A DNA stretch of 64,000 nt from Leptonemataceae bacterium (GCA_965227295.1 OZ245742.1:5856001-5920000), one strand, 5' to 3'; positions 7,094 to 60,895 are shown, numbered from the stretch's first letter. Notes: a model not told the origin generated them from the letters alone. Made by a program: numbers and translations.

Positions 7094-7095
7094 CT

Positions 7096-40422: not shown

Positions 40423-40639
40423 ATCTCCGGTCTACAATCCACACAGGCCCGCGAGCGCGCGCGCCGAGGTTCGGTAGCCTCGGCGCGCGCGTTCGCGGGG
40501 CGGACCGTGTCAGACTCGCAGCGGGGCGGCGAAATCGCGCGCGTTCTCGGGAGCCCCGCCCGTGAGACTCACAGCCGCGGCCCTCTTTCGCCCCCCTGCC
40601 GGACGCCCGCTGCGAAAACAAGATTCAATCGGCGATTTC
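40423..40639 (+). repeat. Left 217-bp inverted repeat
   Basis: ATCTCCGGTCTACAATCC...GGCGATTTC. Confidence 0.95.
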
Positions 40640-42291
40640 CTCAGCTGAATCTGCTCTATTATACTGCGCTAGCGCAGGATGTTCTGGGCCGGGCGTATCC
40701 GAAGTTCTGTCCGCATTGTGATGTTGAAATGCACACGCCTGTGGCCGGGCGCGAGACCGCGGTGCGTTGCGAAACCTGTCACTACATGGGCTCGCGCACG
40801 GCGGGCACCCCGCTGGATCACTTAAAGTTACCTCTCTGGACGTTTAGCTATGTGCTTGGCGAGGCCGTGCAGACGTTCCCGCAGATGATCTCCGCGGCGC
40901 AGATTCAACGGCGGCTCGGATGTTCGAAACAGGCTTCGCTGAATCTCAAGCGGCGCCTGCAATTGTTCCTCACGGACCTCGTGCCGGCCGTCCGCGAACT
41001 GGTGAAGCGCGATCTTGAAGAGGCGTTTTCTGACCTGAAATTGCCGGAAAATCAAGACGTTTCGAAGTTTGTCGCGAATAAGCCCGTGGTGCACAGCGAC
41101 ACCCTCGCCTTGTTCTCGGCAACGCAGCGCAGTAACGGCGGTCGCGCAAGATGGAAACATACCGGACAGACCGCAAGCATCTATCTTTCGGACAAAGTCG
41201 CGGAGCAACGTGGCAAAGTCCAGATCGGAACGCTCGCGCATACCGTTGCGATTATGAACGGGCCGGTGCTACTTACGTCCGTTCGCGATCAAACACAGAA
41301 GAGTCTTGAACCTTCTTTCAACTTCTTGCCGCGCCTGACGCCGATCATGACGGACGAAGGCACGCCGTGGCTGTCGCGTTACTTTCCGAATCATCGCGCC
41401 GTAAATCACAGCGCCCGCGCGAAGGACAAACAGCGCAGCAAGTGGGCGCGGGATCGCTGGAGCCGCAACGGCGTCCACAATCAGGTCGCCGAAGGCAACC
41501 AGCGAATCGTTAAGATGAGTTTCCTCGCAGCTTACGGATACTTCGATCCGAAGTACTCGCAGTTGTATCTCAATGAATACTCCGCGCTCAAGGCCCTGAA
41601 GCTCCACGGCCTCGATAGTCTGCTTTCTCTATCAAATCCGACCGGTGTGGGGAATGTAGACCACAGATATAGCGCCCTGCCCTCCGGGCTTCCCGTCGGC
41701 ACGGGCCTCAGCATATTTCATCGCAAAGTGCAGGAGAATCTGTATATCCCACCGCAATTGCACGATCGCAAGGGCCTCGACTATAGCGACTCGCGGCGGC
41801 AGATTCGCGGAAATCTCAAGCTGATGTTGGACGAACCGGACCTGTTTGCCGCCAAACAGGCCCATGTAGATTACCTGAATTCGTTTCAAGGCCTGCCGCC
41901 GTTTCGAAAGCAGAACGAAAAGAAATACGCCGCGCAAGCGTCGGCGCTCTGGAACGCGCTATCGCGACACGACGCGAAGCTATCCGCCGACGTCGCGCGC
42001 TCCGTGCGCGTCAATCATCGCATGGTATTAAGGATGATTCGACTGTGGACGAAGCTCGGCCTCGTCGAGGCGCGTGAGATTCGCGGCGAGAAGGATCGCC
42101 GTAAACAGTTCTGGGTGTCGCGGCGCGTGTCGCTTCTGCCAGCGCTGCTGTATACCTGGGATCTCGACGGATTCCGCAATCAAACCGAGGCAGGCGTGCC
42201 CGTGGACCGCACGAAGAAAACCCGGCGCGGTAAGCACGGGATAACCGGCAAAGAACGTTCTAAATTTATTCAGGAGATGTATGATGGGTAA
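40507..42291 (+). CDS. IS1595-family-like DDE transposase with long C-terminal extension
   Basis: F.RRFP start, CPHC/CETC zinc ribbon, HTH (AQIQRRLG), HSD...MTDEG...VNHS...HNQVAEG...YLNEY; start codon uncertain. Confidence 0.8.
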   Translation: MSDSQRGGEIARVLGSPARETHSRGPLSPPCRTPAAKTRFNRRFPQLNLLYYTALAQDVLGRAYPKFCPHCDVEMHTPVAGRETAVRCETCHYMGSRTAGTPLDHLKLPLWTFSYVLGEAVQTFPQMISAAQIQRRLGCSKQASLNLKRRLQLFLTDLVPAVRELVKRDLEEAFSDLKLPENQDVSKFVANKPVVHSDTLALFSATQRSNGGRARWKHTGQTASIYLSDKVAEQRGKVQIGTLAHTVAIMNGPVLLTSVRDQTQKSLEPSFNFLPRLTPIMTDEGTPWLSRYFPNHRAVNHSARAKDKQRSKWARDRWSRNGVHNQVAEGNQRIVKMSFLAAYGYFDPKYSQLYLNEYSALKALKLHGLDSLLSLSNPTGVGNVDHRYSALPSGLPVGTGLSIFHRKVQENLYIPPQLHDRKGLDYSDSRRQIRGNLKLMLDEPDLFAAKQAHVDYLNSFQGLPPFRKQNEKKYAAQASALWNALSRHDAKLSADVARSVRVNHRMVLRMIRLWTKLGLVEAREIRGEKDRRKQFWVSRRVSLLPALLYTWDLDGFRNQTEAGVPVDRTKKTRRGKHGITGKERSKFIQEMYDG

Positions 42292-42610
42292 AGTATCGAA
42301 GAAGAAAGCCAGTAAAAAAGCGAAGGAGGAACCGCTGAAGTTCTTCGCATCGCACTTTTGGGACCTCATGAAGTCTCAGGACTACAAGTGCGCACTCACC
42401 GGGCGTGAGTTGACACCGGACAACACCGAAGTCGAGCTGCGCGTGCCGTTCAAGAGCGTGGGCCGGACGGAGTTCTCGAATCACTACATCGTCGTGCGAC
42501 AGTTGGCATACACGGCACGGCATGTGAGCGAAGACGAGATCGTCGAGCTGGCGGCCGACATCATCCGGCATCGCGGCAAGGAGTTCGGCTATGCGCTCCG
42601 CAAAGCGTGA
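42281..42610 (+). CDS. Small HNH-like protein, probably catalytically degenerate
   Basis: QDYKCALTGRELT...ELRVP....G....N pattern; AGGAG RBS; overlaps the transposase stop. Confidence 0.6.
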   Translation: MMGKVSKKKASKKAKEEPLKFFASHFWDLMKSQDYKCALTGRELTPDNTEVELRVPFKSVGRTEFSNHYIVVRQLAYTARHVSEDEIVELAADIIRHRGKEFGYALRKA

Positions 42611-43247
42611 AGACCTGTTCCCGGCGTGGGGCGTCGAGGCGGCGCTCTCGCGCTTAAGAGGCCGGCAGAAGAAGTTTGCTGCGTCGCCGATGGAACGCAA
42701 GCACGTCGCGCGTGACAAACGCTCGTGGAGCTATGCCTGCGTCTCGGCCGTGAACAAGATGCGCTATCGGCACCGCGCCGTCTTTCAGGAATCGCGCGAG
42801 CCGGATGCGTGGTCGTGGGTGATTGCCGTGCAGAAAAAGAAGCTCGTGCGGAAGGTTGACCCGGTCGCGGCGTGGCGGGATGCAGAGTATCGGATTCTGG
42901 AACGATACTACGGCCGGCTGCGCGAACCTCAATCCAAGCAGGATCGCGATCGCTGGCGGTATGTGATTATTCGGCAGCGGTCGTACTTGCGGCGACTACA
43001 GGGGCGAGCAAAATCCGGTCCGCCTTCAAACGACTGGGCCAGAGTTCTTAAAAAAATGGCCCGGATCTCTGCGACACCATCGGAACATAGCAGTGGCCGT
43101 GGTTCCTGGAACTGGCGAACGACTGTGGCAGCCCAACGAGAGAAGCTACGGAACGCCCGCAGGCAGACGGGATGGATGAAGCTTGAAAGCCGACTCCAGT
43201 TCAATCCCGCAGCTCGACCATATCATATTTCTGAACCTGTCCACTAA
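42591..43247 (+). CDS. Highly basic Trp/Arg-rich hypothetical protein
   Basis: Overlaps the previous gene by 20 bp; recurring W-led basic helices. Confidence 0.6.
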   Translation: MRSAKREDLFPAWGVEAALSRLRGRQKKFAASPMERKHVARDKRSWSYACVSAVNKMRYRHRAVFQESREPDAWSWVIAVQKKKLVRKVDPVAAWRDAEYRILERYYGRLREPQSKQDRDRWRYVIIRQRSYLRRLQGRAKSGPPSNDWARVLKKMARISATPSEHSSGRGSWNWRTTVAAQREKLRNARRQTGWMKLESRLQFNPAARPYHISEPVH

Positions 43248-43557
43248 GGATTTGAGCCTTTGCGTAGTGTTCATCGATCACGGACGTGATGCGAATACTG
43301 CCAACCTCTTCGCGCTGATAGTAAACATCATCAGTTCCCGTATCTATAGCTTTTGTCCGAAAGACTTCAAGCTTCTGCCCGGGCTCCGCACCGTCTCGAT
43401 CACCGATACAAATCACGACTACTTCTTCTTTCACATCGACAACGTTGCCTCGCATGCCGTACTTGTGATAGAACTTCGAAAAGCTTGCACACGCGAGCGC
43501 ACTCGAAATCAAAAACAGACATGTCATCAATCGAATCGTTAATTTTATATGTTTCAT
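43201..43557 (-). CDS. Small lipoprotein (FlgT C-terminal-like beta domain)
   Basis: Lipobox ALAC; ICIG..DGA..GQ.L.V...VG.I.I..V....A.A. Confidence 0.65.
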   Translation of the reverse strand: MKHIKLTIRLMTCLFLISSALACASFSKFYHKYGMRGNVVDVKEEVVVICIGDRDGAEPGQKLEVFRTKAIDTGTDDVYYQREEVGSIRITSVIDEHYAKAQILSGQVQKYDMVELRD

Positions 43558-43768
43558 AGAGGATAGATTCAACGTAGAATCGGATTAAGTCCATCAAATT
43601 CGCGACGGCACTCCAAAAAATTCATAGCCTTCGGAGAACCGCACCTCGCGACAATGATCGTTTCATAATGCACGAGAAAGACTACGAGTGCCTGTCGATA
43701 CACTTCACGAACCATGAATGATACAGTGAGCCGTGACCTGACCAAAACTACTTCAATCGTCAGTTTTC

Positions 43769-45826
43769 TTAATCATCGGTCTCGTCGCGCGAAAGATCCA
43801 CGCTGCGCTTAAGCAACTGCGCGTTCACCGCGACGATCACGGTGCTGAGACTCATAAACACCGCGCCCACCGCCGGACTCAGCATGATCCCCAGCGGCGC
43901 GAGCACACCTGCCGCGAGGGGAATGGCAACGACGTTGTAGGCCGTCGCCCAGATTAGATTCTGAATCATCTTGCGATGCGTCGCACGACCGAAGAGCACC
44001 AGGTTGCTGATGTCTTTGGGATTGCTGTGCACGAGCACGATGTCCGCCGTCTCCGCGGCGACGTCGGTGCCGGAGCCGACGGCAATGCCCACGTCCGCCT
44101 GGGCCAGGGCCGGCGCGTCGTTGACGCCGTCACCGGTCATGGCGACGAACTCGCCGTCGCCTTGCAGTTCTTTAACGATGTCCTGTTTCTCGTGAGGCAG
44201 CACGCCCGCATAAAACCCGTTCAGGCCCAGCTCGTCGTGGACGCTCTTCGCGACGGTCTCATTGTCGCCGGTGGCCATCATCGTTTTGATGCCGGTGTCG
44301 TGCAAAATGCGAATCGCCTCGGGAGACTCGGGGCGTATGGAGTCCGCCAGGCCGACAAAACCCTTGAGTTCTCCGTCCACGACCAGAAAGACCACCGTCT
44401 CCGCGCCGGACGCGGCGGCCGAATCGGGAATCGTTATGCCGTTTTCCTTTAAGAAGCCCGGGCTGACCACCTTCACCTCGCGGGAATCCACGGACGCCTG
44501 CACACCCTTGCCGGTGATCGATTGAAAGCCTGACGCCTCCGGGACCGACAGCTCGCGCTTTTCACAGGCTTGAACGATGGCCTGCGCAATAGGATGCTCC
44601 GAATTTTTTTCGAGGGCCCCCGCAAAGCGCAGCACGTCATCCTCCGAAAACGAGTCCGACACGCTCACGACCCGCTGCACGCCGAATTCGCCGGTGGTCA
44701 GGGTGCCGGTCTTGTCGAAGACGATCGTAGAAATTTTGCGCGCGCTTTCGAAGGCGGTCCGATTGCGAATCAGCAGGCCGTTTTGTGCGGAGATGGCCGT
44801 CGAAATCGCGGCCACCAGGGGAATCGCCAGACCGAGGGCGTGCGGACAGGAAATCACCATCACGGTCACCATGCGTTCCAGAGCGAAGACGAACTCGTAG
44901 CCGAGATAGAGCCAGACCGCTAAGGTCAGCGCGCCGGCGGTTAAGGCGACGAAGGTCAGCCAGCGCGCGGCCCGGTCGGCCAGGCGCTGGGTGCGGGACT
45001 TCGTTTGCTGGGCCTCTTCGACCAGGCGAATCACTTTAGAAAGATACGAGTCCTCGCCGGTCTTGTTGACGCGAATGCGCAGCGAGCCCTCACCGTTGAC
45101 GGAGCCGCCGATCACTTCGTCGCCCGCGGACTTGCGCACCGGCTCCGACTCGCCGGTGAGCATGGATTCATTGAGATAGCTGTTACCGTCTTCGATGGTG
45201 CCGTCGGTGGGAACCTTTTCCCCGGGCTTGATCAGCAACAGATCGCCGGACTGTACGTCCTCCAGCGCCACGTCGTTCACGTCGCCGTCCTCGTCGATGC
45301 GATGCGCTTCGTTGGGCATCATCTCCACGAGCAGTTCCAGGGCGCGGGACGCACCGAGCACCGAGCGCATCTCGATCCAGTGGCCGAGCAGCATGATGTC
45401 GATCAGCGTCGCCAGCTCCCAGAAGAACATCTTGCCGGACAGGCCGAAGACCACCGCCGAACTGTAAGCGTAGGCCACGAAGATGGCCAGGCCGATTAGA
45501 GTCATCATGCCCGGGTTGGCCCGGCGCACCTCATCGAACGTGCCGCGCAGAAACGGCCAACCGCCGTAGAAAAAGATCATCGACGACAGCCCGAACAGAA
45601 CGTAGCGGCTCCCTGGAAACTCCAGGGAGAAACCGAGAAACGACTGGATCATCGGCGAAAGAACGAGGACCGGCACGGTCAGGACGGCCGATACCGCCAG
45701 GCGCTTCTTGAAGTCCCGGATCATTTGCCGGTGATGATCGCCGTGATTGTGACCGCCGTGGCCGTCGTGATTACCGTGGTCGTGATTGTGTTCGGCGTGT
45801 TTTTCGTGGTCTTCGTGATGTTTCAT
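43769..45826 (-). CDS. copB: Copper-translocating P1B-3 type ATPase
   Basis: His-rich N-terminus, TGES, CPH, DKTGT, SEHP, GDGVNDAP, YN/MS motifs. Confidence 0.93.
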   Translation of the reverse strand: MKHHEDHEKHAEHNHDHGNHDGHGGHNHGDHHRQMIRDFKKRLAVSAVLTVPVLVLSPMIQSFLGFSLEFPGSRYVLFGLSSMIFFYGGWPFLRGTFDEVRRANPGMMTLIGLAIFVAYAYSSAVVFGLSGKMFFWELATLIDIMLLGHWIEMRSVLGASRALELLVEMMPNEAHRIDEDGDVNDVALEDVQSGDLLLIKPGEKVPTDGTIEDGNSYLNESMLTGESEPVRKSAGDEVIGGSVNGEGSLRIRVNKTGEDSYLSKVIRLVEEAQQTKSRTQRLADRAARWLTFVALTAGALTLAVWLYLGYEFVFALERMVTVMVISCPHALGLAIPLVAAISTAISAQNGLLIRNRTAFESARKISTIVFDKTGTLTTGEFGVQRVVSVSDSFSEDDVLRFAGALEKNSEHPIAQAIVQACEKRELSVPEASGFQSITGKGVQASVDSREVKVVSPGFLKENGITIPDSAAASGAETVVFLVVDGELKGFVGLADSIRPESPEAIRILHDTGIKTMMATGDNETVAKSVHDELGLNGFYAGVLPHEKQDIVKELQGDGEFVAMTGDGVNDAPALAQADVGIAVGSGTDVAAETADIVLVHSNPKDISNLVLFGRATHRKMIQNLIWATAYNVVAIPLAAGVLAPLGIMLSPAVGAVFMSLSTVIVAVNAQLLKRSVDLSRDETDD

Positions 45827-45856
45827 AGATTCCTCCGATGTACCCGGGTGCCTTAT

Positions 45857-46147
45857 TCAGGGACGCCGGGCCGTCGCCTCGCGCAGCGAAAAGTTGTAAA
45901 TCCCGGCGATGCACGCACCACAGAGATACGCCAGCACGAAGCTCTGGAAAAAACCCAGGCCGGCCTCCCACCAGGGCACGTCCATGCGAATCACGCCGCT
46001 GACGTCCAGGCCGTGCAACAGGCTGTTGAAAAAGAGAATCGTCCCTTCGCGTCCCACGCTCATCATCAGAATGATGCAGCCGGCGTACAGCAGCGCCGCC
46101 GTGACGCCCCAGGCGATACCGAACTTAAGTACGTTTATGCGAATCAT
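45857..46147 (-). CDS. Small membrane protein (DUF5676-like)
   Basis: Two TM helices, LYAGC, FFNSLLHG, IYN. Confidence 0.7.
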   Translation of the reverse strand: MIRINVLKFGIAWGVTAALLYAGCIILMMSVGREGTILFFNSLLHGLDVSGVIRMDVPWWEAGLGFFQSFVLAYLCGACIAGIYNFSLREATARRP

Positions 46148-46349
46148 GCGAACCTCCCCGGTGAGAATGACCTTCGTGGCCGTCTCCGCCGTGCATGCCG
46201 CTCATAAGAAAAAAATGCGCGGCGAAACAAATCATCAAAAAGAAGAACAGTGACCACGAGTCGCCGGGCAAAAAGGCCGGTGCGAAAAATATCAACAGCA
46301 GCGGCAGCACGCAGATCAAAAGCATCCATATCATGTGAAATCTCATCAT
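46125..46349 (-). CDS. Small His-rich membrane protein (DUF2933-like)
   Basis: HMIWMLLICVLPL...CFAAHFFLM...His-rich tail; GGAGG RBS. Confidence 0.65.
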   Translation of the reverse strand: MMRFHMIWMLLICVLPLLLIFFAPAFLPGDSWSLFFFLMICFAAHFFLMSGMHGGDGHEGHSHRGGSHDSHKRT

Positions 46350-46407
46350 CAAACCTCCGAAACCAGAACAGCTCCCCGCCGCTTTTTCCGGGACGGGGAG
46401 CTTCGTT

Positions 46408-46950
46408 TTACATTTGAAACTCGGCTTCGTGAACGTGCTTCTTTCCACCGTAGGTGAACTCGGCCTTCACTTTGTAAGTTCCGGAACCCTGCATGGAAAA
46501 ACCGATGCCGTGGTGGTGCATGCCGCCGCCGGCCATCACGTGGCCCTCACCGTCGGCCAGGACCTTGCCGTCCGGCCCGGTGACCGTGATCTTGAGGCCC
46601 TTGGCGTCCTTGATGACCTTCTTCGTATCGAGTTTCATCAGCGTCAGGCTGAGGTGATGCTGACCGGTGTCGTGCATACCGTGCATGTCCACGTTCATCA
46701 TCTTCGCCATATCCGCGTGGCCTTCGGCGGTCATGAGGTCGAAGGCGACCTGAACGCCGTCGTGTTTGACGACCTTCGTCATGTTTTTTCCCGAGTGCAT
46801 GCCGGGATTATGGCCGTCCATCATATCGCCGGAGTGATGGTCACTCATCGCACCGCCGTCATGGTGATCCCCCGGCTCGCCGCCGCAGGCAACGCCCAAT
46901 AAGGCGCCCAAGACGAGGACCGGAATCAATTTCAATAAACTCATAAACAT
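46408..46950 (-). CDS. Met/His-rich lipoprotein, putative periplasmic copper-binding protein
   Basis: Lipobox GVAC; multiple M/H clusters; Ig-like beta C-terminus. Confidence 0.75.
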   Translation of the reverse strand: MFMSLLKLIPVLVLGALLGVACGGEPGDHHDGGAMSDHHSGDMMDGHNPGMHSGKNMTKVVKHDGVQVAFDLMTAEGHADMAKMMNVDMHGMHDTGQHHLSLTLMKLDTKKVIKDAKGLKITVTGPDGKVLADGEGHVMAGGGMHHHGIGFSMQGSGTYKVKAEFTYGGKKHVHEAEFQM

Positions 46951-46985
46951 CTCCTTATATTAAGTTAAATAAAGACTGGCGCCCT

Positions 46986-47603
46986 TCAATGGTCTCCGGT
47001 TTCCAGAAATTCTCCCCGCGGGCCGACGCCGTGCAGGTGCGTGAGTTCGGCCCCGAAGTGCCCCGCCGCGGAGACCAGGACCGCGGCAGCCAGCATCGTA
47101 GCGGCGGCCACGAATTCCAGCCAGCGGCGACGCAGCCCAAGGCCGGCGAGTTGCAAAGCAAGCGCCGCGGCGGCCGTGTAGATCGTGGCGTAGGCGAAAA
47201 AATCGTGGTTGGCGAGGACCGCCCGGGCTTCCGGAGTAAGACCGGTCGTGTGCGGGTGCACGAAGTAGGCCGCAACCACGCCGCCGATCAGTCCGACGGC
47301 GCCCACGGCGATACCCGTCCGGATCAGCGTGTCGTTTCGGAAGATTAAACCGACCGGATACAGAATCGCCGCGAGCAACAACAGGACGATCGGGAAGTGA
47401 ACGACCAAAGGATGCAGCGTCGGAAAGGCCGCGAGAGGCGGCGCGACCGCTTCCAGAAGTCCGGCCTCGGGAGTGGATTCCGCGGCACTCTCCCCGGATG
47501 CGTGGTCCCCGGGCCCGTGGGCATGCAATGGCAGCGCCGCCAGATAGATGGCCAACCCCAGGGCTAATATTTTCTGAATGATATTTAAGACCCTTGCTTT
47601 CAT
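46986..47603 (-). CDS. DUF2231-like membrane protein
   Basis: LHPLVVHFPI, AGHFGAEL..HGVG. Confidence 0.8.
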   Translation of the reverse strand: MKARVLNIIQKILALGLAIYLAALPLHAHGPGDHASGESAAESTPEAGLLEAVAPPLAAFPTLHPLVVHFPIVLLLLAAILYPVGLIFRNDTLIRTGIAVGAVGLIGGVVAAYFVHPHTTGLTPEARAVLANHDFFAYATIYTAAAALALQLAGLGLRRRWLEFVAAATMLAAAVLVSAAGHFGAELTHLHGVGPRGEFLETGDH

Positions 47604-48847: not shown

Positions 48848-48871
48848 AAAATTATCTCCACTGAACAAGAA

Positions 48872-51800
48872 TCATAGATTGCGCCCGGGCTTCGGGACGG
48901 TCGCCGCAACTTCCGGCGTGAGCACTTCATCCGCCTCGACTTCGTGAAACGGACTCGCCGCTCCGTCCCTGCGCAGGCGCCGCAACTGCAACCATTCGTA
49001 GATGGTCGGAATCAACACGAGCGTCACCAGGGTGTCGGTGACCAGGCCGCCGATCATCGGCGCGGCCAGGCGTTTCATTACGGAAGAGCCGGAGTCCGTG
49101 GCCCACATGATTGGAATCAAACCCAGCAAGGTCGTCGCCACAGTCATGATCTTCGGCCGCACGCGGCCCACGACGCCTTCAAGCATCGCGGCGCGCAGTT
49201 TCTCCGGTGTATCCAGGCCGTGTTCGCGTTTGTGTTTCGCGAGCACCGTGTCGAGGTACACAAGCAGCACGATGCCCGTCTCCACGGACAAACCCGCCAG
49301 AGCAATGAAGCCAACGTCCGTGGCCACGCTTCGATTGTAGCCGAGCAGGAACATCAACCATACGCCGCCGGTTACCGCGAAGCCCAGGCAGCCCAGGATG
49401 ATCGTCGTCTCGGTAAAGTTCTTAAAGTGCAGGTAGAGGAGCACGATGATGGCGATAAGCGTCAGTGCGCCGGCGATGCGCAGCCGTTCGGCGGCGCGCT
49501 CCAGATACTCGTATTGGCCGCTCCACACCAGGGTTACGCCCGGGGGCTGCTGCAACTCGCCGGCCTTCAGCTTGTTGCGAATCAGCGCCTTCGCGTTCTC
49601 AACGTAGCCGGCCACGTCCTGGGAACTCTTCAAATCCACGAAGATCCACGCGGTCTTGCGGGCGTTTTCGGTTTTGATGCCCGGCGGCCCGGTGCGCAGG
49701 CGCAGCTCCGCCACGTGGGAAATCGGAATGTTCGCCCCCGACGGCGTGCGCACCCAGACGTCTTTTAACTTCTCCAGATCATCTCTTAGCTCGCGAGGAT
49801 AACGCACGTTCACGGGATAGCGCGCCAGGCCCTCGACCGTTTCGGTGACGTTCATCCCGCCCACGGCCGTCATGATCGTATCCTGCACGTCGCCGACGGT
49901 CAGCCCGTACCGCGCCGCCGCCTCGCGATTGATGACGTAGTCGATGTAGCGGCCGCCCGTAACGCGCTCCGAAACCACCGAGGCCGTGCCGGGCACGGTC
50001 TTGAGCACGGCTTCGAGTTCGCTGCCGTAGCGCGCCAGTTCGCTTAAGTCGTCCCCGAGCAACTTTACGCCCACCGGCGTCTTGATGCCCGTCGCCAGCA
50101 TATCGATGCGCGTGCGAATGGGATACGTCCAGGCGTTGGTCAGCCCCGGGAACTGAATTTTGTCGTCCAGCTCTCGCATGATTTTTTCGACCGTCATGCC
50201 CGACCGCCACTCCGAGCGGTCTTTCAGGATGATCGTAGTCTCGATCATGGTGAGCGGGGCCGGGTCCGTGGCCGTCTCCGCGCGGCCGATCTTACCGAAG
50301 ACGTGCTTTACCTCGGGCTGCTCCATGATGATGGCGTCCGTGCGCTGCAGAATTTCCCGGGCCTTGGTAATCGAAATGCCGGGCAGCGTGGTGGGCATGT
50401 ACAGGATGTCGCCCTCGTTCAGCGGAGGCATGAATTCACCGCCGATGCCTTTCACCAGCTTCTTGCCGTTCGAAAAAGGAACGGGAATGCCGTAGATTGG
50501 GATCAGGGTCAGTAACATAAAACCACCGAAAGCTAAGAGAAACGTCGCCTTGCGGTCCAGAGCGGCGTCGATCAGCGGGCGGTACGTGCGCACGAAAAAG
50601 CGCGCGATGGGGTTGTCCTCTTCCGCCCGGGTGTCGCCGCGCACAAAAAGCGAAATCAGCACCGGGATGATCGTAATTGCGATGACGGCGGCGAAGGCCA
50701 TGGCGAAGGTCTTGGTCAACGCCAGGGGGCGAAAGAGCCGGCCGGACTGCTCTTCCAGCACCAGGATCGGCAGAAACGAAACGGTAATGATCAACAGCGA
50801 AAAGAAGAGCGCCGGCCCGACTTCGAGAGACGCCCGCCGGACGACGACGTCGTGGGCGGCGTCGGGATCGTGCTCCCGGTGCTTGTGCACGTTTTCGACG
50901 AGCACGATCGAGGCGTCCACCATCACCCCGATGGCGATGGCGATGCCGCCGAGGGACATGATATTGGCGTTGATGCCGAGAAAGTCCATCAGCGCCAGGG
51001 ACGCGAGAATCCCGATGGGCAGCGTCACCACGGCCACTAAGGCCGAGCGAGCGTGCATTAAGAAAACGGCGATAACGATCGCCACGACGAGCATCTCCTC
51101 GACCAGCTTCCAGGAAACGTTTTTGACGGCGCGATAGATCAAATTCGAACGATCATAGGCCGTGCGAATTTCGACCCCCTCCGGCAGCGACGGTCGAATC
51201 TCTTCGATGCGCTGCTTCACGCGTTCAATGATTTCGAGCGCGTTTTCGCCGAAGCGCATCACGACGATGCCGGCCACCACCTCCCCCTCGCCGTTCCACT
51301 CGGCGATGCCCCGGCGAATCTCCGGGCCGATCTGCACGTGGGCGACGTCGTCGATGGTGATGGGATTGCCCTGATCGTCCACGCGCAACACCACACTGCG
51401 AATATCGTCGACGGACTGGATGTAACCCAGGCCCCGCACCATGTACTCGGTCTCGCCCATCTCGATCAGTCGCCCGCCGGTGTCGCGGTTCGAACGCGCC
51501 AGACGCGAGCGCACGGTTTCGAGGGAAATGTCGTGCAGCAGCAAGCGCGTGGGATCCACCTCGACCTGGTACTGCTTCACGAAGCCGCCGATGCTCGCGA
51601 CCTCGGCCACGCCTTTGAGGCTGGCGAGTTCGTAGCGAATGCTCCAGTCCTGGAGCGAACGCAGCTCCTGGTTGTTTAACTTTCCGCTGGTGTCGGTTAC
51701 TATGTACTGATAGACCCAGCCCACGCCGGTGGCGTCGGGACCGAGCTGCGGCTTCACGCCCGGCGGCAGGCGCGACGACGAGTTGATGTACTCCAGCACC

Positions 51801-52126
51801 CGCGAGCGCGCCCAGTAGATGTCCGTGCCGTCCTCGAAGATCACGTAGACCATCGAGAAACCGAAGAACGAATAGCCCCGCACCACCTTGGCGTGGGGCA
51901 CGGCCAGCATGGCCGACGTCAGCGGGTAGGTAACCTGGTCTTCGACGACCTGGGGGGCCTGGCCGGTGTACTCGGTGTAGATGATCACCTGCACGTCGGA
52001 GAGATCCGGAATGGCGTCGATAGGAATGGTCTGGATCGCCCGCAGTCCGGCGAAGACCACGGCCCCGGCGGCGATCAAGACGAGCGCCTTGTTCTTGAGC
52101 GAAAATTCGATAATGCGTGCAATCAA
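48872..52126 (-). CDS. cusA: CusA/SilA-type heavy-metal RND efflux permease
   Basis: DAIPDLSDVQV, GPDATGVGW, NIMSLGGIAIAIGVMVD, EFMP, RIDML, RPKIMT. Confidence 0.93.
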   Translation of the reverse strand: MIARIIEFSLKNKALVLIAAGAVVFAGLRAIQTIPIDAIPDLSDVQVIIYTEYTGQAPQVVEDQVTYPLTSAMLAVPHAKVVRGYSFFGFSMVYVIFEDGTDIYWARSRVLEYINSSSRLPPGVKPQLGPDATGVGWVYQYIVTDTSGKLNNQELRSLQDWSIRYELASLKGVAEVASIGGFVKQYQVEVDPTRLLLHDISLETVRSRLARSNRDTGGRLIEMGETEYMVRGLGYIQSVDDIRSVVLRVDDQGNPITIDDVAHVQIGPEIRRGIAEWNGEGEVVAGIVVMRFGENALEIIERVKQRIEEIRPSLPEGVEIRTAYDRSNLIYRAVKNVSWKLVEEMLVVAIVIAVFLMHARSALVAVVTLPIGILASLALMDFLGINANIMSLGGIAIAIGVMVDASIVLVENVHKHREHDPDAAHDVVVRRASLEVGPALFFSLLIITVSFLPILVLEEQSGRLFRPLALTKTFAMAFAAVIAITIIPVLISLFVRGDTRAEEDNPIARFFVRTYRPLIDAALDRKATFLLAFGGFMLLTLIPIYGIPVPFSNGKKLVKGIGGEFMPPLNEGDILYMPTTLPGISITKAREILQRTDAIIMEQPEVKHVFGKIGRAETATDPAPLTMIETTIILKDRSEWRSGMTVEKIMRELDDKIQFPGLTNAWTYPIRTRIDMLATGIKTPVGVKLLGDDLSELARYGSELEAVLKTVPGTASVVSERVTGGRYIDYVINREAAARYGLTVGDVQDTIMTAVGGMNVTETVEGLARYPVNVRYPRELRDDLEKLKDVWVRTPSGANIPISHVAELRLRTGPPGIKTENARKTAWIFVDLKSSQDVAGYVENAKALIRNKLKAGELQQPPGVTLVWSGQYEYLERAAERLRIAGALTLIAIIVLLYLHFKNFTETTIILGCLGFAVTGGVWLMFLLGYNRSVATDVGFIALAGLSVETGIVLLVYLDTVLAKHKREHGLDTPEKLRAAMLEGVVGRVRPKIMTVATTLLGLIPIMWATDSGSSVMKRLAAPMIGGLVTDTLVTLVLIPTIYEWLQLRRLRRDGAASPFHEVEADEVLTPEVAATVPKPGRNL

Positions 52127-53535
52127 TGGTTGTGCCCTCCCATCGGATCGGGTGCTTCATCCATAGAATCGCCGTCGCCCGCTCCCGCGGAGCCGCTCCC
52201 GCCCCGCATTTTACGCACGGCCTCCTGGATGCGCGACTCGGAGTCTAACAAAAACTGACCGGAAGTTACCACGGCCTCGTGTTCGGAGAGGCCGTCGAGG
52301 ATTTGCAGGCGGTCGTTTTCGTCGGTGACGCCCACGCTTACGATCCGCGGCTCGAAGGCGCCGTTGCCGCGGTAGACGAAGGCGAGCGTGCGTTCCCCGG
52401 TGCGGATGACCGCCGAAGACGGCACCGTCAGAAACTCCCCGTCCAGCGTGCGGCGCAGCTTGAGCGTAGCGTACATGCCGGGCTTCAACGTGCGCCCCGG
52501 ATTCGCGAAGGATACACGGACGCGCAGGTCCCGGGTCTCCGCCCGCATAAACGGAAACACGAAGCTGACCCGTCCCTCGAAGGTCTTCCCCGGTACCTGG
52601 GGGACGATCATCTCCACCGGCAGCCCGGTCTCCACGAAGGGAATATCTTTTTCGGGAATGTGAATGTAGGCCCACACGGTCGAAAGATCGACGATGCGAA
52701 ACAGATCCGTGCCCTCGGCGATCTTCGCGCCCTGGACGACGTTTTTTTCGACGACGACGCCGGAAATGGGCGCGTGGATCGTGAGCAGCCGCGACGGCGT
52801 GCCGCGCTTCTCCAGCGCCGCGATCTGCGCCGCGCTGATGTTCCAGTACTGTAATCTACGGCGAGCGGCGCTTAAGAGGCGCTCCACCTCCGGCGAAGGC
52901 CCCAGACTCTGCTTGCTTTTATAGAGCTGAAGATACTCCTCCTGAGTCGCCACCAGCTCCGGGCTGTAGACGCCGGCCAGGGCCTGGCCCCGGCGCACGC
53001 TGGCGCCGGTAATGTTCACGTAGAGTTTTTCGACCCAGCCGCCGAAGCGGGCGTTCACCACGGCTTCGGCGTTTTCGGCAAAGTCGATGTGCGCCACGGC
53101 GCGAATCTCTTTCGTAATCTCCCGGCGCGTAACGATCTCGGTGTTCACACCCATTTTTTGAATGACCGCCGGGTCCACCCGCACGATGGGCGGGGCCGGC
53201 GCACTGCTCGCATCATCGGCAGCTCCGTCGCCGTCGGCCGCGCTCATGTTGGCGCCGTCAGCCTCCGCCCCGGAGCCGCCGTCGTCGCCGCCGTGCACCG
53301 TGCCGTCGTCGTGCAGGTGCGGCTTCATCGGAACCAGGTCCATACCGCAAATCGGGCACGAGCCCGGGCCGTCCTGAATGACCTGGGGATGCATGGGGCA
53401 CGTGTACAGACTCGACGCCTCCGGCGCCGACGCACCGCCCCCGCGCAGAGCCGGGACGGCGAAGTAGATACCGGCGCCGAGTCCGCCCAGAGCCAGGACA
53501 ATGATTAACATGGTAATATACTTTTTCCGATTCAT
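52123..53535 (-). CDS. cusB: CusB-type RND periplasmic adaptor with heavy-metal-binding domain
   Basis: YTCPMHP...CPICGMDL, YSPEL..QEEYL, LKPGM, FLLDSES. Confidence 0.9.
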   Translation of the reverse strand: MNRKKYITMLIIVLALGGLGAGIYFAVPALRGGGASAPEASSLYTCPMHPQVIQDGPGSCPICGMDLVPMKPHLHDDGTVHGGDDGGSGAEADGANMSAADGDGAADDASSAPAPPIVRVDPAVIQKMGVNTEIVTRREITKEIRAVAHIDFAENAEAVVNARFGGWVEKLYVNITGASVRRGQALAGVYSPELVATQEEYLQLYKSKQSLGPSPEVERLLSAARRRLQYWNISAAQIAALEKRGTPSRLLTIHAPISGVVVEKNVVQGAKIAEGTDLFRIVDLSTVWAYIHIPEKDIPFVETGLPVEMIVPQVPGKTFEGRVSFVFPFMRAETRDLRVRVSFANPGRTLKPGMYATLKLRRTLDGEFLTVPSSAVIRTGERTLAFVYRGNGAFEPRIVSVGVTDENDRLQILDGLSEHEAVVTSGQFLLDSESRIQEAVRKMRGGSGSAGAGDGDSMDEAPDPMGGHNH

Positions 53536-54950
53536 GGTGTTTCCTCCGCATCCGCGGTGTACGCGGGGATGATGACGTTCAGCAGGCGGGCCTCTTCGAA
53601 GACGAGTCGCTCACGTTCGCCGCGCAGGCGGATCACCTCGGCCTCCTGCATAAAGAGGGTATTCCAGCTTTCCAGCAGCGCGAAGAAGTCGATGCGACCG
53701 GTCTCGTAAGCGAGGCGCGCCGAGTCCCGGGCCCGGGCGGCCTGGGGAATCAGGCTGTCCTGGAACAGACGGATGCGCTCCGTAAGCGAACGGCGGTCCG
53801 CCGCGAGGGAACGCAGGCGATACTGGATGCGCTGGATCACCTCGACCCGCGAGATCCGCGTGGCCCGGTCGCGTTTCTCCTGAGCGTCCACGGCGGAGCC
53901 CGCGGAGAGCGCCGACCAGAGCGGCACCGTCATGGTAAAGCCGAAGCTGTAAAAGTCCTCGCCGAAGGCGGGATCGCCGCTGATTTTCTCTCGTTCGCGA
54001 TACGAGGCGAAGACCTCGAAGTCCGGCAGGTACTCCATCCGGGCGAGGCGGCGCCGCTCGCGCACGGCCTGTAGTTCCAGGTCCATCATCGCGACGTCGA
54101 GGGAAGCGGCGGCCACTGCCTCTTCCTCGACGCCGATGCGCCGGACCTGCTCCGACAGCGTCGCTCGATACTCATCAAGGACGCCGTCGGCGCTCAGCGC
54201 GCGCAGCAGTTGTTGCGCCCCGGCGTCGTCGGCCCGCTCCGCGTCAGATTTCGCCGGGTCCGGGATAAGATAGTAGGCGAGCATGGCCAGCTTCGCCTGG
54301 CGCCGGCCCTCAAATTCCGTGTTCCGCTGTTCGAACGTGGAAAAATTGAGCTCGGCCCGGGAGACGTCGGCCAGCGATCCGCGGCCGACGGAGTATCGCG
54401 TGCGCGCCACGTTGCTGACCAGTTGAAACCGGCGCGCGTAGTCCTGATTGAGTCGCAGGAGCCGGTCCAGGACCACGGCCTCGGAAGCGTCTTTCAAAAA
54501 TTCATAGGCGAGATTATTTTTATCGACCGCCAGCCGGAGCAGGGCCTGCCGGGCCTCAAGGTCGGAGACGTTGGCCTGAGTCGTCAGGCGTCCGGGAAAC
54601 GGGATCGGCTGGCGCACCGAAAACTCAATGCCCGTCATGGGCGTTTGATCTCGAATGATGCGCAGATTTTTCTTGTACGGCAGATTCGACCAGGCGACCC
54701 CGACCCTCGGGTCCGGGTACTTCCAGGCGGCGTACTCCGCCAGATCCTTGCGCGCGGCGGCCTCAAGAGCCTGCAAGCGAATCCGCGGGTGGTGCGTGCT
54801 GATCTCGACCACAATGCGATCCACGCCCGGGGATTCCCGGTCCGGCGCTTCGGCTTCGACAGCCGAACGTTCTTCCGCCGGGAGCACGCGGCCCGTGATC
54901 AGTACGAGCAGGCAGAGCACTCCCCAACGGGCAATTCTGTGGTGGTGCAT
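53532..54950 (-). CDS. TolC/CusC family outer-membrane efflux protein
   Basis: Signal peptide, PDP, Q.IPFPG, LPDF, AYETGRIDF; upstream of cusBA. Confidence 0.85.
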   Translation of the reverse strand: MHHHRIARWGVLCLLVLITGRVLPAEERSAVEAEAPDRESPGVDRIVVEISTHHPRIRLQALEAAARKDLAEYAAWKYPDPRVGVAWSNLPYKKNLRIIRDQTPMTGIEFSVRQPIPFPGRLTTQANVSDLEARQALLRLAVDKNNLAYEFLKDASEAVVLDRLLRLNQDYARRFQLVSNVARTRYSVGRGSLADVSRAELNFSTFEQRNTEFEGRRQAKLAMLAYYLIPDPAKSDAERADDAGAQQLLRALSADGVLDEYRATLSEQVRRIGVEEEAVAAASLDVAMMDLELQAVRERRRLARMEYLPDFEVFASYREREKISGDPAFGEDFYSFGFTMTVPLWSALSAGSAVDAQEKRDRATRISRVEVIQRIQYRLRSLAADRRSLTERIRLFQDSLIPQAARARDSARLAYETGRIDFFALLESWNTLFMQEAEVIRLRGERERLVFEEARLLNVIIPAYTADAEETP

Positions 54951-55043
54951 AGGACCTCCATTCCTTCGATACAATCCGGGGCGAACCCGGCGGTACGCGG
55001 GCAGACCGCGCCGATGCAGTCGTAACTACGAAGAAATGGAGGT

Positions 55044-55487
55044 TTAGATCAGCAGGATTTGCAGTCGCATGTGCAGCGCGACATTCGACGGCGGAGGGGC
55101 GTGCGGAATCAATCGATCGGCAGAAACACGGCGGGTGGGCGCGGAGACCGGAAGGTCACGCCGGGATTCCAACAGCGGGACAAAGGCCAACTCGGGCGCC
55201 GGAAAGAACACGCTGTCCACCGGAGCAAGGACGGCGGCGTGAGCCCGAACGCAACAGTCCGTCTCGCCGGGCTCGGGAGCGGACGGCGCCGGGGATTCAG
55301 CGGCGACCCGATGACAAGAAGGCAGCGTATCTGTTGCGGACGCGTCCATCGCCGACTCCGATAACGGCGACGCACATAGTCCCAGCGGGCAGAGCGTCAG
55401 CTGTAGAACGGCACCGAGTGCCGCCACCGATCCCATCCAGCGCAGGCCGGAGGATCCCGGCCGTATTTGCTTGCTCACTGCTCGCAC
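55044..55487 (-). CDS. Cys/His-containing hypothetical leader gene of the cus operon (DUF2946-like)
   Basis: TM, PSCH, DCC, PPP...LHMRLQILLI tail; start uncertain. Confidence 0.55.
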   Translation of the reverse strand: MRAVSKQIRPGSSGLRWMGSVAALGAVLQLTLCPLGLCASPLSESAMDASATDTLPSCHRVAAESPAPSAPEPGETDCCVRAHAAVLAPVDSVFFPAPELAFVPLLESRRDLPVSAPTRRVSADRLIPHAPPPSNVALHMRLQILLI

Positions 55488-55551
55488 GACTCCAGCATAA
55501 AGGTGCGACTGTGTAACTTCGTCAAGAAAAAAACGTGGACGGAACTCGATG

Positions 55552-55568
55552 ATACCGCATATGGGTAT
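55552..55568. promoter_or_regulatory. CsoR-type operator candidate
   Basis: ATACC-gcatatg-GGTAT between divergent csoR and the cus operon. Confidence 0.55.
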
Positions 55569-55575
55569 GCAGTAT

Positions 55576-55872
55576 ATGGCATCCCGAAAGCTTCGTAAGA
55601 AAACAGTGCGACAACCCCGCAAGAGCACCATGCAAACACGCATGAACAAGATCGCCGGACAGGTCGCGGGAATCCAGGACATGATCGAACGAGATCGCTA
55701 CTGCGTGGACATTATGACGCAAATCAGCGCTGTAAAGTCCGCTCTGGACAGCGTCGCCATGCTTTTGTTGGAAGACCACACCCGGCACTGCGTTAAGGAT
55801 GCCCTCGTCGGCGGCAACGGAACTCAAAAAATCGAAGAACTCGTTCGCGTCGTGAAGAAATACACAAAGTAA
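55576..55872 (+). CDS. csoR: CsoR family copper-sensing repressor
   Basis: RMNKIAGQV.GI..M, RYCVDI, HTRHC (C-H-C ligand set). Confidence 0.88.
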   Translation: MASRKLRKKTVRQPRKSTMQTRMNKIAGQVAGIQDMIERDRYCVDIMTQISAVKSALDSVAMLLLEDHTRHCVKDALVGGNGTQKIEELVRVVKKYTK

Positions 55873-55917
55873 AGGAGCGCCTCGTTGATCCGGGGCGCTC
55901 CCTGTGAATGCGCGGGC

Positions 55918-56160
55918 TCAGGCCAACGCCGCCTTCACCGTGGCCACATCGACGCCGCGACCGGCGCAACAATCCGCAGGCTTGCCGTTGACGAGCACAG
56001 CCGGAATGGATGCAATCCCCAGGGACTTTGCCCGGGACACGACCGCTGGATCGTCCATGTCCAATATCGTAACTTCTTTAGAACCGGCGATTCCATTCAA
56101 TTCGACAATCGTGTCTTCGCAGAGAGCGCATCCGGCGCTGAATACTTCGACTTTTTTCAT
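55918..56160 (-). CDS. Small thioredoxin/glutaredoxin-like protein with CxxC and CC
   Basis: SAGCALC, SIPAVLVNG, DCC. Confidence 0.8.
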   Translation of the reverse strand: MKKVEVFSAGCALCEDTIVELNGIAGSKEVTILDMDDPAVVSRAKSLGIASIPAVLVNGKPADCCAGRGVDVATVKAALA

Positions 56161-56165
56161 AATTT

Positions 56166-56909
56166 TTACCTCACTTGTTTAAATTCACATTGAGTGCAAT
56201 CTTGTATCTGAGCAGGCTGCGGCCACGCGTTCCACAGGGAGACGCATAGCAGGCCGGCGGTTCCAGCGTAGAGCAGCGGATCCGAGTTCCAGTAAAACTT
56301 TCCGAGCAGAATGACCGCTGACGCGACGAGCCCGGCGGCGAACGGAAGATAGCCGCGTCGTTGCTTCGCTCGAAAAGCCAGCAGGAACAGCACGACGCCG
56401 AGAGAGACCGCTGTGATGGGCAGCAGGTACGGCGTATAATTCCAGAAGCCGATGCCGAGCGACCCGAGGATCGCGGCGTAGGCCGGCAGGCAGGCGGCGC
56501 ACGTCAGCTTCGGCAGCAGGGCCGGGACAATCGCCACTATCGATCCAAGAATGCCGCGCAGACCCCGCGATGGGCCGGCGTCGATCGCGTGATCAGGCCC
56601 GGCTGAGAGAGCGGCCAGTACTCTGTCGACCGGTGGCGCCCCGGTTTTTTCATTTGAACCATAGAGCCGACACGCATTCGCCGTGTCACCGGGCGGAGCG
56701 CCGCCGACATCCACACCGTCCACGAGAATGGTCGGTGAGCCGTAGGCTTTCGCGTAAGCGGGGGCGTCTTGCGCCGCGCTGTCCCACTCCACCCAACGTG
56801 ATGGCAGGCGCAACGTTGTCAGGGCCTCGATAATTACCTGCCGGGCCCGATGCGTATTCGGGCAATCAGCACTAAAAATGAGTTCTACGTCTTTCAAATC
56901 TGCCTCCAT
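56166..56909 (-). CDS. Thioredoxin-like domain fused to MerC-like mercury transporter
   Basis: DCPN...GSPTILVDG...ACRLY, then LTCAACLPAYA and four TM helices. Confidence 0.75.
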   Translation of the reverse strand: MEADLKDVELIFSADCPNTHRARQVIIEALTTLRLPSRWVEWDSAAQDAPAYAKAYGSPTILVDGVDVGGAPPGDTANACRLYGSNEKTGAPPVDRVLAALSAGPDHAIDAGPSRGLRGILGSIVAIVPALLPKLTCAACLPAYAAILGSLGIGFWNYTPYLLPITAVSLGVVLFLLAFRAKQRRGYLPFAAGLVASAVILLGKFYWNSDPLLYAGTAGLLCVSLWNAWPQPAQIQDCTQCEFKQVR

Positions 56910-57313
56910 TAATTCACTTCCTCTTCCAATGCCTCAAGAATCGGACAGCGATTGCTCTGCTCCTCGGCCAGACAGGCGTCGGCGAGTCGCGAAAGGACCT
57001 GTTCCATTTTCTTCAGTGCTTTGATTTTCGCGCGCACCTCGGCGAGCTTTTGCTCGGTATTGCGGCGGACCTGGCCGCAGTCGGTGGGATTGCTACGGCG
57101 CAGGAGGAGTAGCTCCTGAATCTGGGCCAGCGTAAAGCCGAGGGATTTAGCCTGCTTGATAAACAGGATCGTCTGGAGCACTTCTTCCGGGTAACGGCGA
57201 TAGGTATCCGCCCGTTCCGGTTGCTGAATCAGCCCTTTCCGTTCATAGAAGCGAATGGTTTCTACGTTTACTGCTGCTTTATCGGCGAGCTGCCCGATGG
57301 TGAAAGACTCCAT
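56909..57313 (-). CDS. merR: Hg(II)-responsive MerR family regulator
   Basis: TIGQLA...VETIRFYERKGL, LGFTL.QI, three Cys (TDC, DAC, CPIL). Confidence 0.88.
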   Translation of the reverse strand: MESFTIGQLADKAAVNVETIRFYERKGLIQQPERADTYRRYPEEVLQTILFIKQAKSLGFTLAQIQELLLLRRSNPTDCGQVRRNTEQKLAEVRAKIKALKKMEQVLSRLADACLAEEQSNRCPILEALEEEVN

Positions 57314-57322
57314 AACAGGGTT

Positions 57323-57354
57323 AATATACACTCCGTACTGTAGTACGGTGTCAA
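57323..57354 (-). promoter_or_regulatory. MerR operator/promoter with elongated 20-bp spacer
   Basis: TTGACA-CCGTAC taca GTACGG agtg-TATATT. Confidence 0.9.
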
Positions 57355-57541
57355 TACCGGAGAGTAAATTTTTCTAACCGGGTTTGCTCTGATGAAGAAC
57401 TCTCAGGACACTAAATCACCCGGTCTGAAGGTTCAGACCCCTGAGGCTACCGCTCGACAATCATAAAGCAAGGATCAATGGAAGTTCCGCCTGGTAGACA
57501 AGGCCGCTCTATCCGGCAAAAGAAACACAAGTGTCAAACCA

Positions 57542-57758
57542 GAAATCGCCGATTGAATCTTGTTTTCGCAGCGGGCGTCCGGCAGGGGGGCGAAAGAGGG
57601 CCGCGGCTGTGAGTCTCACGGGCGGGGCTCCCGAGAACGCGCGCGATTTCGCCGCCCCGCTGCGAGTCTGACACGGTCCGCCCCGCGAACGCGCGCGCCG
57701 AGGCTACCGAACCTCGGCGCGCGCGCTCGCGGGCCTGTGTGGATTGTAGACCGGAGAT
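57542..57758 (-). repeat. Right 217-bp inverted repeat
   Basis: Reverse complement of 40423-40639. Confidence 0.95.
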
Positions 57759-57855
57759 ATGCGCGGATTTTCGAGCGGCTGCGGGCATGAAACGAGGGTC
57801 GATGACGTACAGTGAAGCTGTCCAGCAGAAATTCACAAAAACGGCCTCGGTGGAT

Positions 57856-58133: not shown

Positions 58134-58231
58134 GAACGGAAGAGAGGTAAAGAACATCATCAGCGGCAAGGGAACCACGGACGACGGAATCAGAAAACTG
58201 TACAAGCTTGAGATGAAAAGAGACTAACTCG

Positions 58232-59677: not shown

Positions 59678-59696
59678 CAGCCGCCCCCAATTAAGT

Positions 59697-60876: not shown

Positions 60877-60895
60877 ACACTTCTCCTTTACGCAG

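Follow-up and report, generated by a model that had tools for sequence, protein, structure and literature searches.

Cargo units bounded by direct copies of a 1.2-kb IS1595-like segment, behind an MBOAT gene in a Leptonemataceae bacterium and at various sites in other Leptospirales

Introduction

Tn7-like elements carry TnsABCD-type genes, insert at attTn7 (glmS), at the 3' end of a conserved gene, and produce a 5-bp duplication. Transposases of the IS1595 family are recognized by a motif of D, D and E/N/H, followed by K/R seven residues downstream, and the family includes passenger-carrying groups (ISNha5, ISNwi1, and ISSod11 in ISfinder names). According to excerpts of PMC7986276, the topology of IS6/IS26 pseudo-compound transposons is that of a replicative cointegrate resolved by host recombination. 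In this study, we analyzed a 64,000-nt stretch of the genome of a Leptonemataceae bacterium (GCA_965227295.1, OZ245742.1), hereafter the window, which covers positions 5856001-5920000 of a single contig of 5,938,550 bp. It contains a 17,336-bp segment, E (window 40423-57758), with identical 217-bp inverted repeats and an IS1595-like transposase. E was found to be the left 60% of a larger unit, U_E, which is bounded by direct copies of an insertion sequence (IS)-like segment, T, and the transposase gene extends past both ends of T. Positions are those of the window unless given as genome positions; genomes carry handles where they must be told apart, with G000 as the source genome.

Results

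Unit U_E and its 8-bp target

U_E is 29,119 bp long (genome 5896423-5925541) and would end at position 69541 in window coordinates. On either side of it stands TGTTCTAG, which makes up the final 8 bp of the MBOAT gene upstream (gtg ttc TAG), and the left end of the unit directly adjoins the TAG stop of that gene (Table 1). The order within the unit is T, K, cargo 1, the first 217 bp of T together with R in inverted orientation, M (cargo 2), R, and T. Here, R is the conserved flank that precedes the right-hand T, and K comprises the C-terminal part of the transposase gene, ORF2, and ORF3.

Direct copies of T with 100% identity were located at genome 5924296-5925541 and 8754-9999. When reverse-complemented, the right end of T, GGGGAATGTAGACCACAGAT, agreed with the left terminus, ATCTCCGGTCTACAATCCACACA, at 19 of 23 positions. 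Short terminal inverted repeats were thus present, and 8-bp repeats surrounded both solo T copies and whole units, as in IS1595 elements. The gap from each T right end to the next left end at this locus was always 8 bp and read TGTTCTAG; the exceptional spacer, TGTACTAG, is interrupted by an IS5-like element (DUF772 and DDE_Tnp_1) with a CTAG duplication. Behind the MBOAT stop codon, units and solo T copies are stacked head-to-tail. A genome scan placed every T terminus in the 5.94-Mb genome at one of two MBOAT loci.

The spacer followed the last 8 bp of whichever gene lay upstream: TGTTCTAG at the first locus of the source genome, AGTTTTAG at its second locus, TGTTTTAG in the sister genome G001, and TTGTAGTT in the Leptospira-like genome G030. 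MBOAT orthologues without the transposase, from four genera, end in ..FIYFVF and the stop codon and continue into unrelated DNA. Since these insertion-free orthologues keep the same ending, the octamer TGTTCTAG is the native target sequence.

The 217-bp inverted repeat

The earlier note had described E as a cargo transposon ending in the 217-bp inverted repeats. The repeat itself was confirmed, with two arms of 217 nt that are 100% complementary, enclose 17,336 bp overall, and are spaced 16,902 nt apart in the inverted-repeat search. Three inverted pairs of at least 25 nt were detected in 22 kb; because the other two were short and imperfect (27-49 nt, 76-85% matching), the 217-nt pair stands well above chance. 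The single transposase ORF (IS1595/ISXO2-like DDE) near the left arm was also borne out by Pfam, and the host proved to be a member of Leptospirales.

The repeats did not behave as ends of the mobile unit. No target duplication surrounded any of the seven repeat-bounded segments (E and six sister segments). The left flank of E is TGTTCTAG and its right flank ATGCGCGG. Across the seven segments, from two genomes, the left flank was TGTTCTAG, TGTTTTAG, or AGTTTTAG, and the right flank began with ATGCGC.. or ATGCAC.. and was the homologous, conserved R sequence every time. The inverted duplication to which the right arm belongs is longer than 217 bp, since the identity of this arm continues into the R-T junction 10 kb downstream. 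Positions 57542-57872 matched genome 5924182-5924512 in inverted orientation over 331 bp at 99.7% (about 1.2 kb with gaps), and 58107-58722 matched genome 5923549-5924190 in the same manner at 96%.

A unit transposon of 17.3 kb with two 'left ends', moved by the IS1595-like transposase, is very improbable in view of this evidence. The perfection of the repeat speaks for it, as does the predicted genuine transposase-recognized terminus facing outward at both ends, and a second segment of the same genome, element B, has perfect 217-bp arms of its own that are 79% like those of E and enclose other cargo. Against this, the arm length varies among the seven segments (217, 217, 222, 319, 251, 332, and 316 bp), and alignment of the right arm to the R-T junction lengthens the repeat to 331-426 bp, plus a further stretch of up to 2.4 kb. 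All seven segments lie inside T-bounded units at MBOAT loci, no copy of the repeat was found outside the stacks of the source genome by similarity search and terminus scan, and the G030 relatives lack the repeat. The earlier note had itself allowed that the right copy might be a truncated second copy of an IS end, which comes close to the actual finding.

The 217-bp inverted repeat is therefore a genus-specific internal inverted duplication and not a transposon end. In it, R and the first 217-332 bp of T are duplicated in inverted orientation, and the ATG and about 82 codons are part of the copy. As possible origins, intramolecular replicative inversion and a head-to-head fusion of two elements were weighed; under both, extra steps would be needed to account for the duplicated R arms.

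Two local features accompany these sequences. Inside the left end, at about 40448-40499, there is a GC-rich, subterminal hairpin of about 22 bp. Its pairing is kept by compensatory changes among 11 aligned variants, with double changes between E-type and B-type at 6 of 16 predicted pairs, and it could act as a terminator-like insulator or as a protein-binding site. R contains a 13-bp tandem repeat (58206-58348) of about seven copies of CGATCACGGAAGA followed by the variant GGAATCACGCAAA, the copy number of which differs between otherwise identical R copies. A promoter scan of R gave no sigma-70-like promoter (0 found, 0.7 expected), and its single feature was a terminator-like hairpin with a 19-bp stem on the minus strand (58691-58651).

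The transposase gene extends past both ends of T

The transposase matched DDE_Tnp_IS1595 (PF12762) with 31.5 bits in E and 37.6 bits in B, against a cut-off of 27, and phrog_1076 with E=2e-74. Its layout is a zinc ribbon, a helix-turn-helix, a DDE core, a linker, and a conserved C-terminal winged-helix-like domain. Among 18 aligned long homologues, C68, C71, C88, and C91 of the zinc ribbon and D198, D283, E329, and K336 were invariant. The protein thus has the N-terminal zinc ribbon and the D, D, and E, with K seven residues downstream, of IS1595 transposases. All catalytic residues precede residue 390 and are thus encoded inside T.

In the AlphaFold model (mean pLDDT 72.9), a beta-ribbon was placed at residues 77-96. 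The linker that contains the right end of T had a pLDDT below 50 at residues 378-400, and its length varied in the alignment. Residues from about 391 to 594 are encoded past the right end of T, in K; they include the conserved C-terminal region (about 410-594), modelled as helices and a winged helix. A fold search of the model against the PDB gave no match at E<=0.001. The best, weak matches were a retroviral integrase (E=0.018), the ISCth4 transposase, and winged helices of the MarR/TFE type, which would weakly fit an RNase-H-like core plus a winged helix.

At the other end, the frame was open from base 1 of T in all variants. An in-frame ATG stood 30 nt outside the left end in all six R-preceded T copies of the source and sister genomes. 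The T copies of G030 had an ATG at -15 or -33, and similar cases were seen in other genomes. Left T copies start right after the stop codon of the spacer, and four of nine have no canonical start before the invariant CxxC, while the frame of the right T copy ends at the spacer TAG. The gene is therefore not contained within the IS ends, as it would be in an IS1595 element: its ATG lies outside the left end and its C-terminus outside the right end. Because the start is in R and the C-terminal domain in K, the gene is whole only where R, T, and K are contiguous.

The assembled orientation was the split one in all seven units with inverted arms. The flipped form would be invisible in k-mer contigs, because inversion between perfect arms makes no new k-mers. 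The ORFs of R and the accessory ORF2 and ORF3 belonged to no Pfam, NCBIfam, or PHROG family. The C-terminal winged-helix domain, ORF2, and ORF3 are candidates for the target selector.

Related units in the sister genome and across Leptospirales

A peptide-pattern scan of genome contigs matched one other genome, G001, of the same genus. Its MBOAT orthologue also ends in ..FIYFVF and stop, with TGTTTTAG. The stack behind it consists of four units built like U_E, three T copies that stand alone, and an additional left end, and all eight spacers read TGTTTTAG. The inverted arms of the four units were 319, 251, 332, and 316 bp long and 99.4-100% identical. Their R arms, of up to 2.4 kb, were 95.8-100% identical and encode DprA-like, double-zinc-ribbon, DUF6908, and SNase proteins oriented towards T. 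The direct T copies were 100% identical in all four units.

Matches to the T-encoded protein at E<=1e-20 were present in 90 of 151 Leptospirales genomes. Usually, two open frames 18-73 kb apart shared a strand, the long one measuring about 600-650 aa and the other about 410-500 aa. In G030 (Leptospira-like, GC 39%), two units (740847-783983 and 783991-816865) follow a SpoIIE/PP2C phosphatase gene. In both units, the direct T copies measure 1,219 bp and are 100% identical, TTGTAGTT stands at all three junctions, and no inverted repeat was found in either unit. Their cargo includes a sigma factor, an LRR protein, an HNH protein, a reverse transcriptase, recombinases, MerR with a P-type ATPase, and AAA_15 with DUF6602.

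Ten further pairs were compared. T was 100% identical in seven and 99.8%, 99.0%, and 92% identical in the other three. An 8-bp repeat enclosed the whole unit in seven of the ten, with seven different octamers, and contig ends or unresolved boundaries affected three. Overall, the T copies were 100% identical in 15 of 18 units, and the 8-bp flanking repeat was present in 15 of 18 (those of E and B in the source genome, four in G001, two in G030, and seven of the further pairs), the remaining three not being assessable for the reasons just given. Between different units of one genome, T differed by 14-30%.

The stop-codon sites were those behind MBOAT (two in G000 and one each in G001, G002, and G005), behind the PP2C phosphatase gene (G030, G027), and at G085:C16. 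The MBOAT-type stop codon directly precedes the element in G005 and G002 as well. Insertion exclusively at stop codons was rejected as a rule, with six other sites having no ORF end on that strand, and so was a requirement for TAG, as G002 has TGA.

A compound transposon of the Tn9 type would also have direct T copies and 8-bp flanking repeats, and fits these two observations equally well. Two complete T copies would have captured the intervening DNA, the 29-kb unit would move by its outer ends, and gene conversion would keep T alike. Solo T copies could then be independent IS insertions, and the possible second U_E adjoining the first (T-8 bp-E, genome 5925541-5925550) resembles movement of a whole unit. 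This explanation is nevertheless rather unlikely. Just inside the T copies, K with the transposase C-terminal domain and ORF2 on one side and the ATG-bearing flank on the other are conserved across the order, a pattern not expected from random capture. T alone cannot encode the full conserved protein, and the extension of the gene past T on both sides in all lineages is left unexplained. Furthermore, T is identical in the great majority of units though other repeats of the same unit differ by up to 4%.

Further copies in the source genome and the contig ends

Element B (genome 10008-19888, 9.9 kb) is 86% identical to E over its first 2,560 bp. Its unit (10008-35704) has the layout of U_E, with TGTTCTAG on both sides. 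Genes for SNase and DUF6908 proteins lie in the R arms of this unit, and a PT-HINT protein of the polymorphic-toxin type (2,184 aa) is encoded in its middle segment. The cargo of B (genome 13070-17292) consists of an AAA_15 and OLD-type TOPRIM protein (772 aa) and a UvrD-like helicase (635 aa), with a TPR protein after them. The first two form a Gabija-like pair with a predicted anti-phage role.

Lone T copies were found at genome 5924296 and 8754 (100% E-type), 34459 (100% B-type), 35713 (77%), 36976 (85%), and 39632 (431 bp). Spacer-flanked solo copies numbered two in the source genome and three in G001. In both stacks, the decayed and solo units were farthest from the MBOAT gene.

The second locus (genome 5030399-5034962, minus strand) lies behind a paralogous MBOAT gene that ends in ..FVYFQF and stop, with AGTTTTAG. 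It consists of a T-like unit, AGTTTTAG, a 3.2-kb element with 222-bp inverted arms (93.7%), and R-like sequence; no second T copy was found downstream of the 3.2-kb element.

The window lies 18.5 kb from the contig end, and the last 22.9 kb of the contig repeat earlier sequence. Genome 5915634-5925549 (window 59634 onward) equals 1-10007 except for variants and the copy number of the 13-bp tandem repeat. After this shared stretch, the contig end continues as T-8 bp-E and the contig start as T-8 bp-B. The first 13,001 bp of E recur at 5925550-5938550 with 100% identity and run into the contig end. Two tandem 29-kb units with a break inside the second copy would fit these ends, and sample heterogeneity is equally possible. 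The shared stretch may also be a repeat that the assembly left uncircularized or unresolved.

This repetition at the contig ends, together with a genome rating of 93.6% completeness and 3.5% contamination, is what an assembly artefact has in its favor, namely that the inverted repeat or the duplication of T is a mis-join in a long-read metagenome assembly. We regard such a mis-join as scarcely credible. The same architecture occurs four times running in the independent sister genome and again at the second locus of the source genome, and direct T pairs are found in many complete genomes. In addition, the k-mers of the junctions are present in contigs of two public runs, which may be the source samples: the arm junctions (MBOAT to 8 bp, repeat to cargo, flank to repeat) appear there as loose contig ends. 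These runs hold the locus as k-mer contigs, which cannot span T, and no listed contig piece bridges T-8 bp-E. The depths of E-type and B-type T contigs were 696 vs 397 in one run and 52.6 vs 15.7 in the other, values that are not copy numbers.

Cargo and neighboring features

The features of the window are listed in Table 1. Cargo 1 encodes a P-type ATPase, DUF5676 and DUF2231 proteins, an ArsP permease, an RND pump with a CusB-like adaptor, an outer-membrane factor, a MerC-like protein (23 bits, below the cut-off), and MerR. About 14 metal-resistance genes had been proposed for this segment. That number was generous, since a domain related to transport or metals was present in about nine of roughly 13 ORFs. 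Beyond the right arm lie two CDF genes and a further RND pump (58793-63979), and M also contains an outer-membrane factor beyond the window. Because metal transporters continue past the right arm, the metal-resistance region is not delimited by the 217-bp repeat.

Table 1. Features at and around segment E, in window coordinates
Feature	Position	Strand	Basis or remark
MBOAT/DltB-like O-acyltransferase ORF, 615 aa	38575-40422	+	Pfam MBOAT 85 bits; ends in ..PFIYFVF and stop
Duplicated target TGTTCTAG	40415-40422	+	Last 8 bp of the MBOAT ORF, TAG stop included
T, left copy, 1,246 bp, IS-like	40423-41668	+	Identical direct copies; terminal inverted repeats of about 23 bp
Left arm	40423-40639	+	Left end of T, terminus ATCTCCGGTCTACAATCCACACA, plus subterminal GC-rich hairpin
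Long transposase ORF, 594 aa from GTG	40507-42291	+	Pfam PF12762, phrog_1076, AlphaFold model
Internal right end of T (IRR'), ..GGGGAATGTAGACCACAGAT	41646-41668	+	Terminus match; inside the linker of the transposase ORF
Conserved accessory module	42281-43247	+	ORF2 and ORF3
ORF2, 109 aa	42281-42610	+	56% identical to counterpart in a Leptospira-like genome
ORF3, 218 aa	42591-43247	+	27% identical to counterpart in a Leptospira-like genome
Cargo 1, metal/efflux block	43769-57331	-	Pfam
Right arm	57542-57758	-	First 217 bp of T, inverted
R region, inverted copy of the flank preceding the right-hand T	57759-58722	-	Inverted matches to genome
Conserved ATG, 30 nt outside T terminus	57786-57788	-	Within R
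Start of M (cargo 2): two CDF transporters, RND pump	58793-64000	-	Pfam; continues past the window

The NCBIfam DltB model scored 130 bits on the MBOAT ORF, below its cut-off. The last ~200 codons of this ORF before ..FIYFVF (39804-40400) were poorly conserved, with about 40% protein identity and varying length, and DNA matches in relatives ended at about 39803.

Other mobile sequences were observed in the stack of the source genome. In the B unit, genome 20484-32068 contains the PT-HINT ORF and small ORFs between the inverted arms; the right arm is broken up by two insertions, a transposase of the IS481/IS3-like kind and the reverse transcriptase of a group II intron. Genome 38221-41989 contains both the IS5-like element in the spacer and a group II intron (reverse transcriptase, maturase, and HNH) that cuts the last T-like unit short at 431 bp.

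A deposited Leptospira 'phage' sequence (KF114878.1, 47,417 bp) opens and closes within partial CDSs similar to the transposase, with residues 35-306 matched at the 3' end. Its genes include sigma-70, LRR, PolB, RHS, and integrase genes, and its annotation lists no structural genes of a phage. The record probably represents a member of the T-bounded family collapsed at the T repeat.

Discussion

Integration model

The model that best accounts for these units, and which we hold to be moderately probable, is replicative integration of the cointegrate type, as in IS26 pseudo-compound transposons. The active form would carry one T, with R, T, and K contiguous, and would probably be a circle. The transposase would nick both ends of T and join them to the 8-bp target at or just past a stop codon. 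Replication through T would then insert the whole donor between two T copies as a cointegrate, and this integration would split the gene, leaving a left copy without a start and a right copy without the C-terminus. Homologous recombination between the T copies would free the single-T form and leave a solo T behind. Repeated insertion at the gene-proximal copy of the octamer would build a tandem stack.

This model is preferred because it predicts what was observed, namely the target-T-K...R-T-target topology, an 8-bp duplication, T copies that are identical, and solo copies of T. T is identical in units where other repeats have diverged (R arms of G001 down to 95.8%), which suggests that the duplication of T is renewed at integration. 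Likewise, the position of decayed and solo units suggests that new units enter at the gene-proximal octamer.

Several points weigh against this model. Some left copies have a GTG or TTG start (in E, a GTG at T base 85), and such copies may be expressed. A single-T circle or plasmid form was not observed in the run contigs, which, as noted, are too short at T to reveal one. Gene conversion could keep T identical instead, and in one unit of G027 the two T copies are just 92% alike. The annotated units contained no genes for replication, conjugation, or a resolvase, and the assembly is uncertain around the contig ends. To our knowledge, replicative transposition has not been shown for IS1595-family enzymes.

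A broader proposal can be made tentatively, and we consider it possible though on the unlikely side. The units would form an undescribed class of 18-73-kb integrative cargo elements in Leptospirales, Leptospira-like genomes among them, in which the gene straddles the ends and its splitting on integration serves as an off switch. In the genus of the source genome, flipping of the segment between the arms would be a second route to a whole gene, as recombination between the arms would put the ATG-bearing R flank before the full-length gene without excision. The excerpts and records covered by a literature search, with ISfinder and TnCentral outside its range, contained no description of T-bounded units, stop-codon stacking, or a gene spanning the ends. 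In these sources, IS1595 transposases of Leptospira are mentioned as annotations only. The suggestion of the earlier note that the class might be undescribed thus holds for a cargo-carrying family absent from the literature found, and fails for the 217-bp repeats as its boundaries.

Implications

If the model is correct, the units represent a distinct build of genomic island in which a DDE enzyme serves as the integration module of large cargo elements. Site-specific insertion at stop codons would be 'safe' for the target gene, polar stacking would record the history of insertions, and the splitting of the gene would limit the element itself. The model would also account for the way in which cargo for metal resistance, phage defense (Gabija-like), and toxins is exchanged in Leptospirales. 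This would extend to Leptospira-like genomes, where relatives of the transposase are annotated only as hypothetical or ISXO2-like proteins. Furthermore, it would offer a testable replicative mechanism for the poorly understood IS1595 family. On the practical side, identical 1.2-kb repeats break short-read assemblies, and the units can look like circular 'prophage' contigs.

Comparison with known systems

With the IS1595 family, the units share the DDE_Tnp_IS1595 domain, the N-terminal zinc ribbon, the D-D-E plus K motif, the 8-bp duplication, and the short terminal repeats. They differ in a Pfam score barely above the cut-off, in a 594-aa protein with an extra conserved C-terminal domain, in a start codon and C-terminus outside the ends, in units of 18-73 kb, and in tandem stacks at stop codons.

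The likeness to IS26/IS6, as that family is described in excerpts of PMC7986276, lies in identical direct IS copies around the cargo, an 8-bp duplication outside them, the cointegrate topology, and the formation of arrays. Both also lack a resolvase, so that resolution would need host homologous recombination, and both have solo IS copies left after resolution. The transposase here is IS1595-like (zinc ribbon, DDE, and K), with PF12762 as its sole Pfam match, which sets it apart from IS6. Moreover, the repeated unit here is 1.2 kb long and its transposase gene runs past both of its ends. Adjacent units share no IS copy and have the 8-bp target between them, insertion is site-specific in several lineages, and cointegrate formation is what we infer here.

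Tn7-like elements and 'safe-site' islands resemble the units in inserting at the 3' end of a gene without inactivating it and in the serial accumulation of metal-resistance and anti-phage cargo islands. The present units differ in having no TnsABCD-type genes, in an 8-bp rather than a 5-bp duplication, and in a target that includes the stop codon itself.

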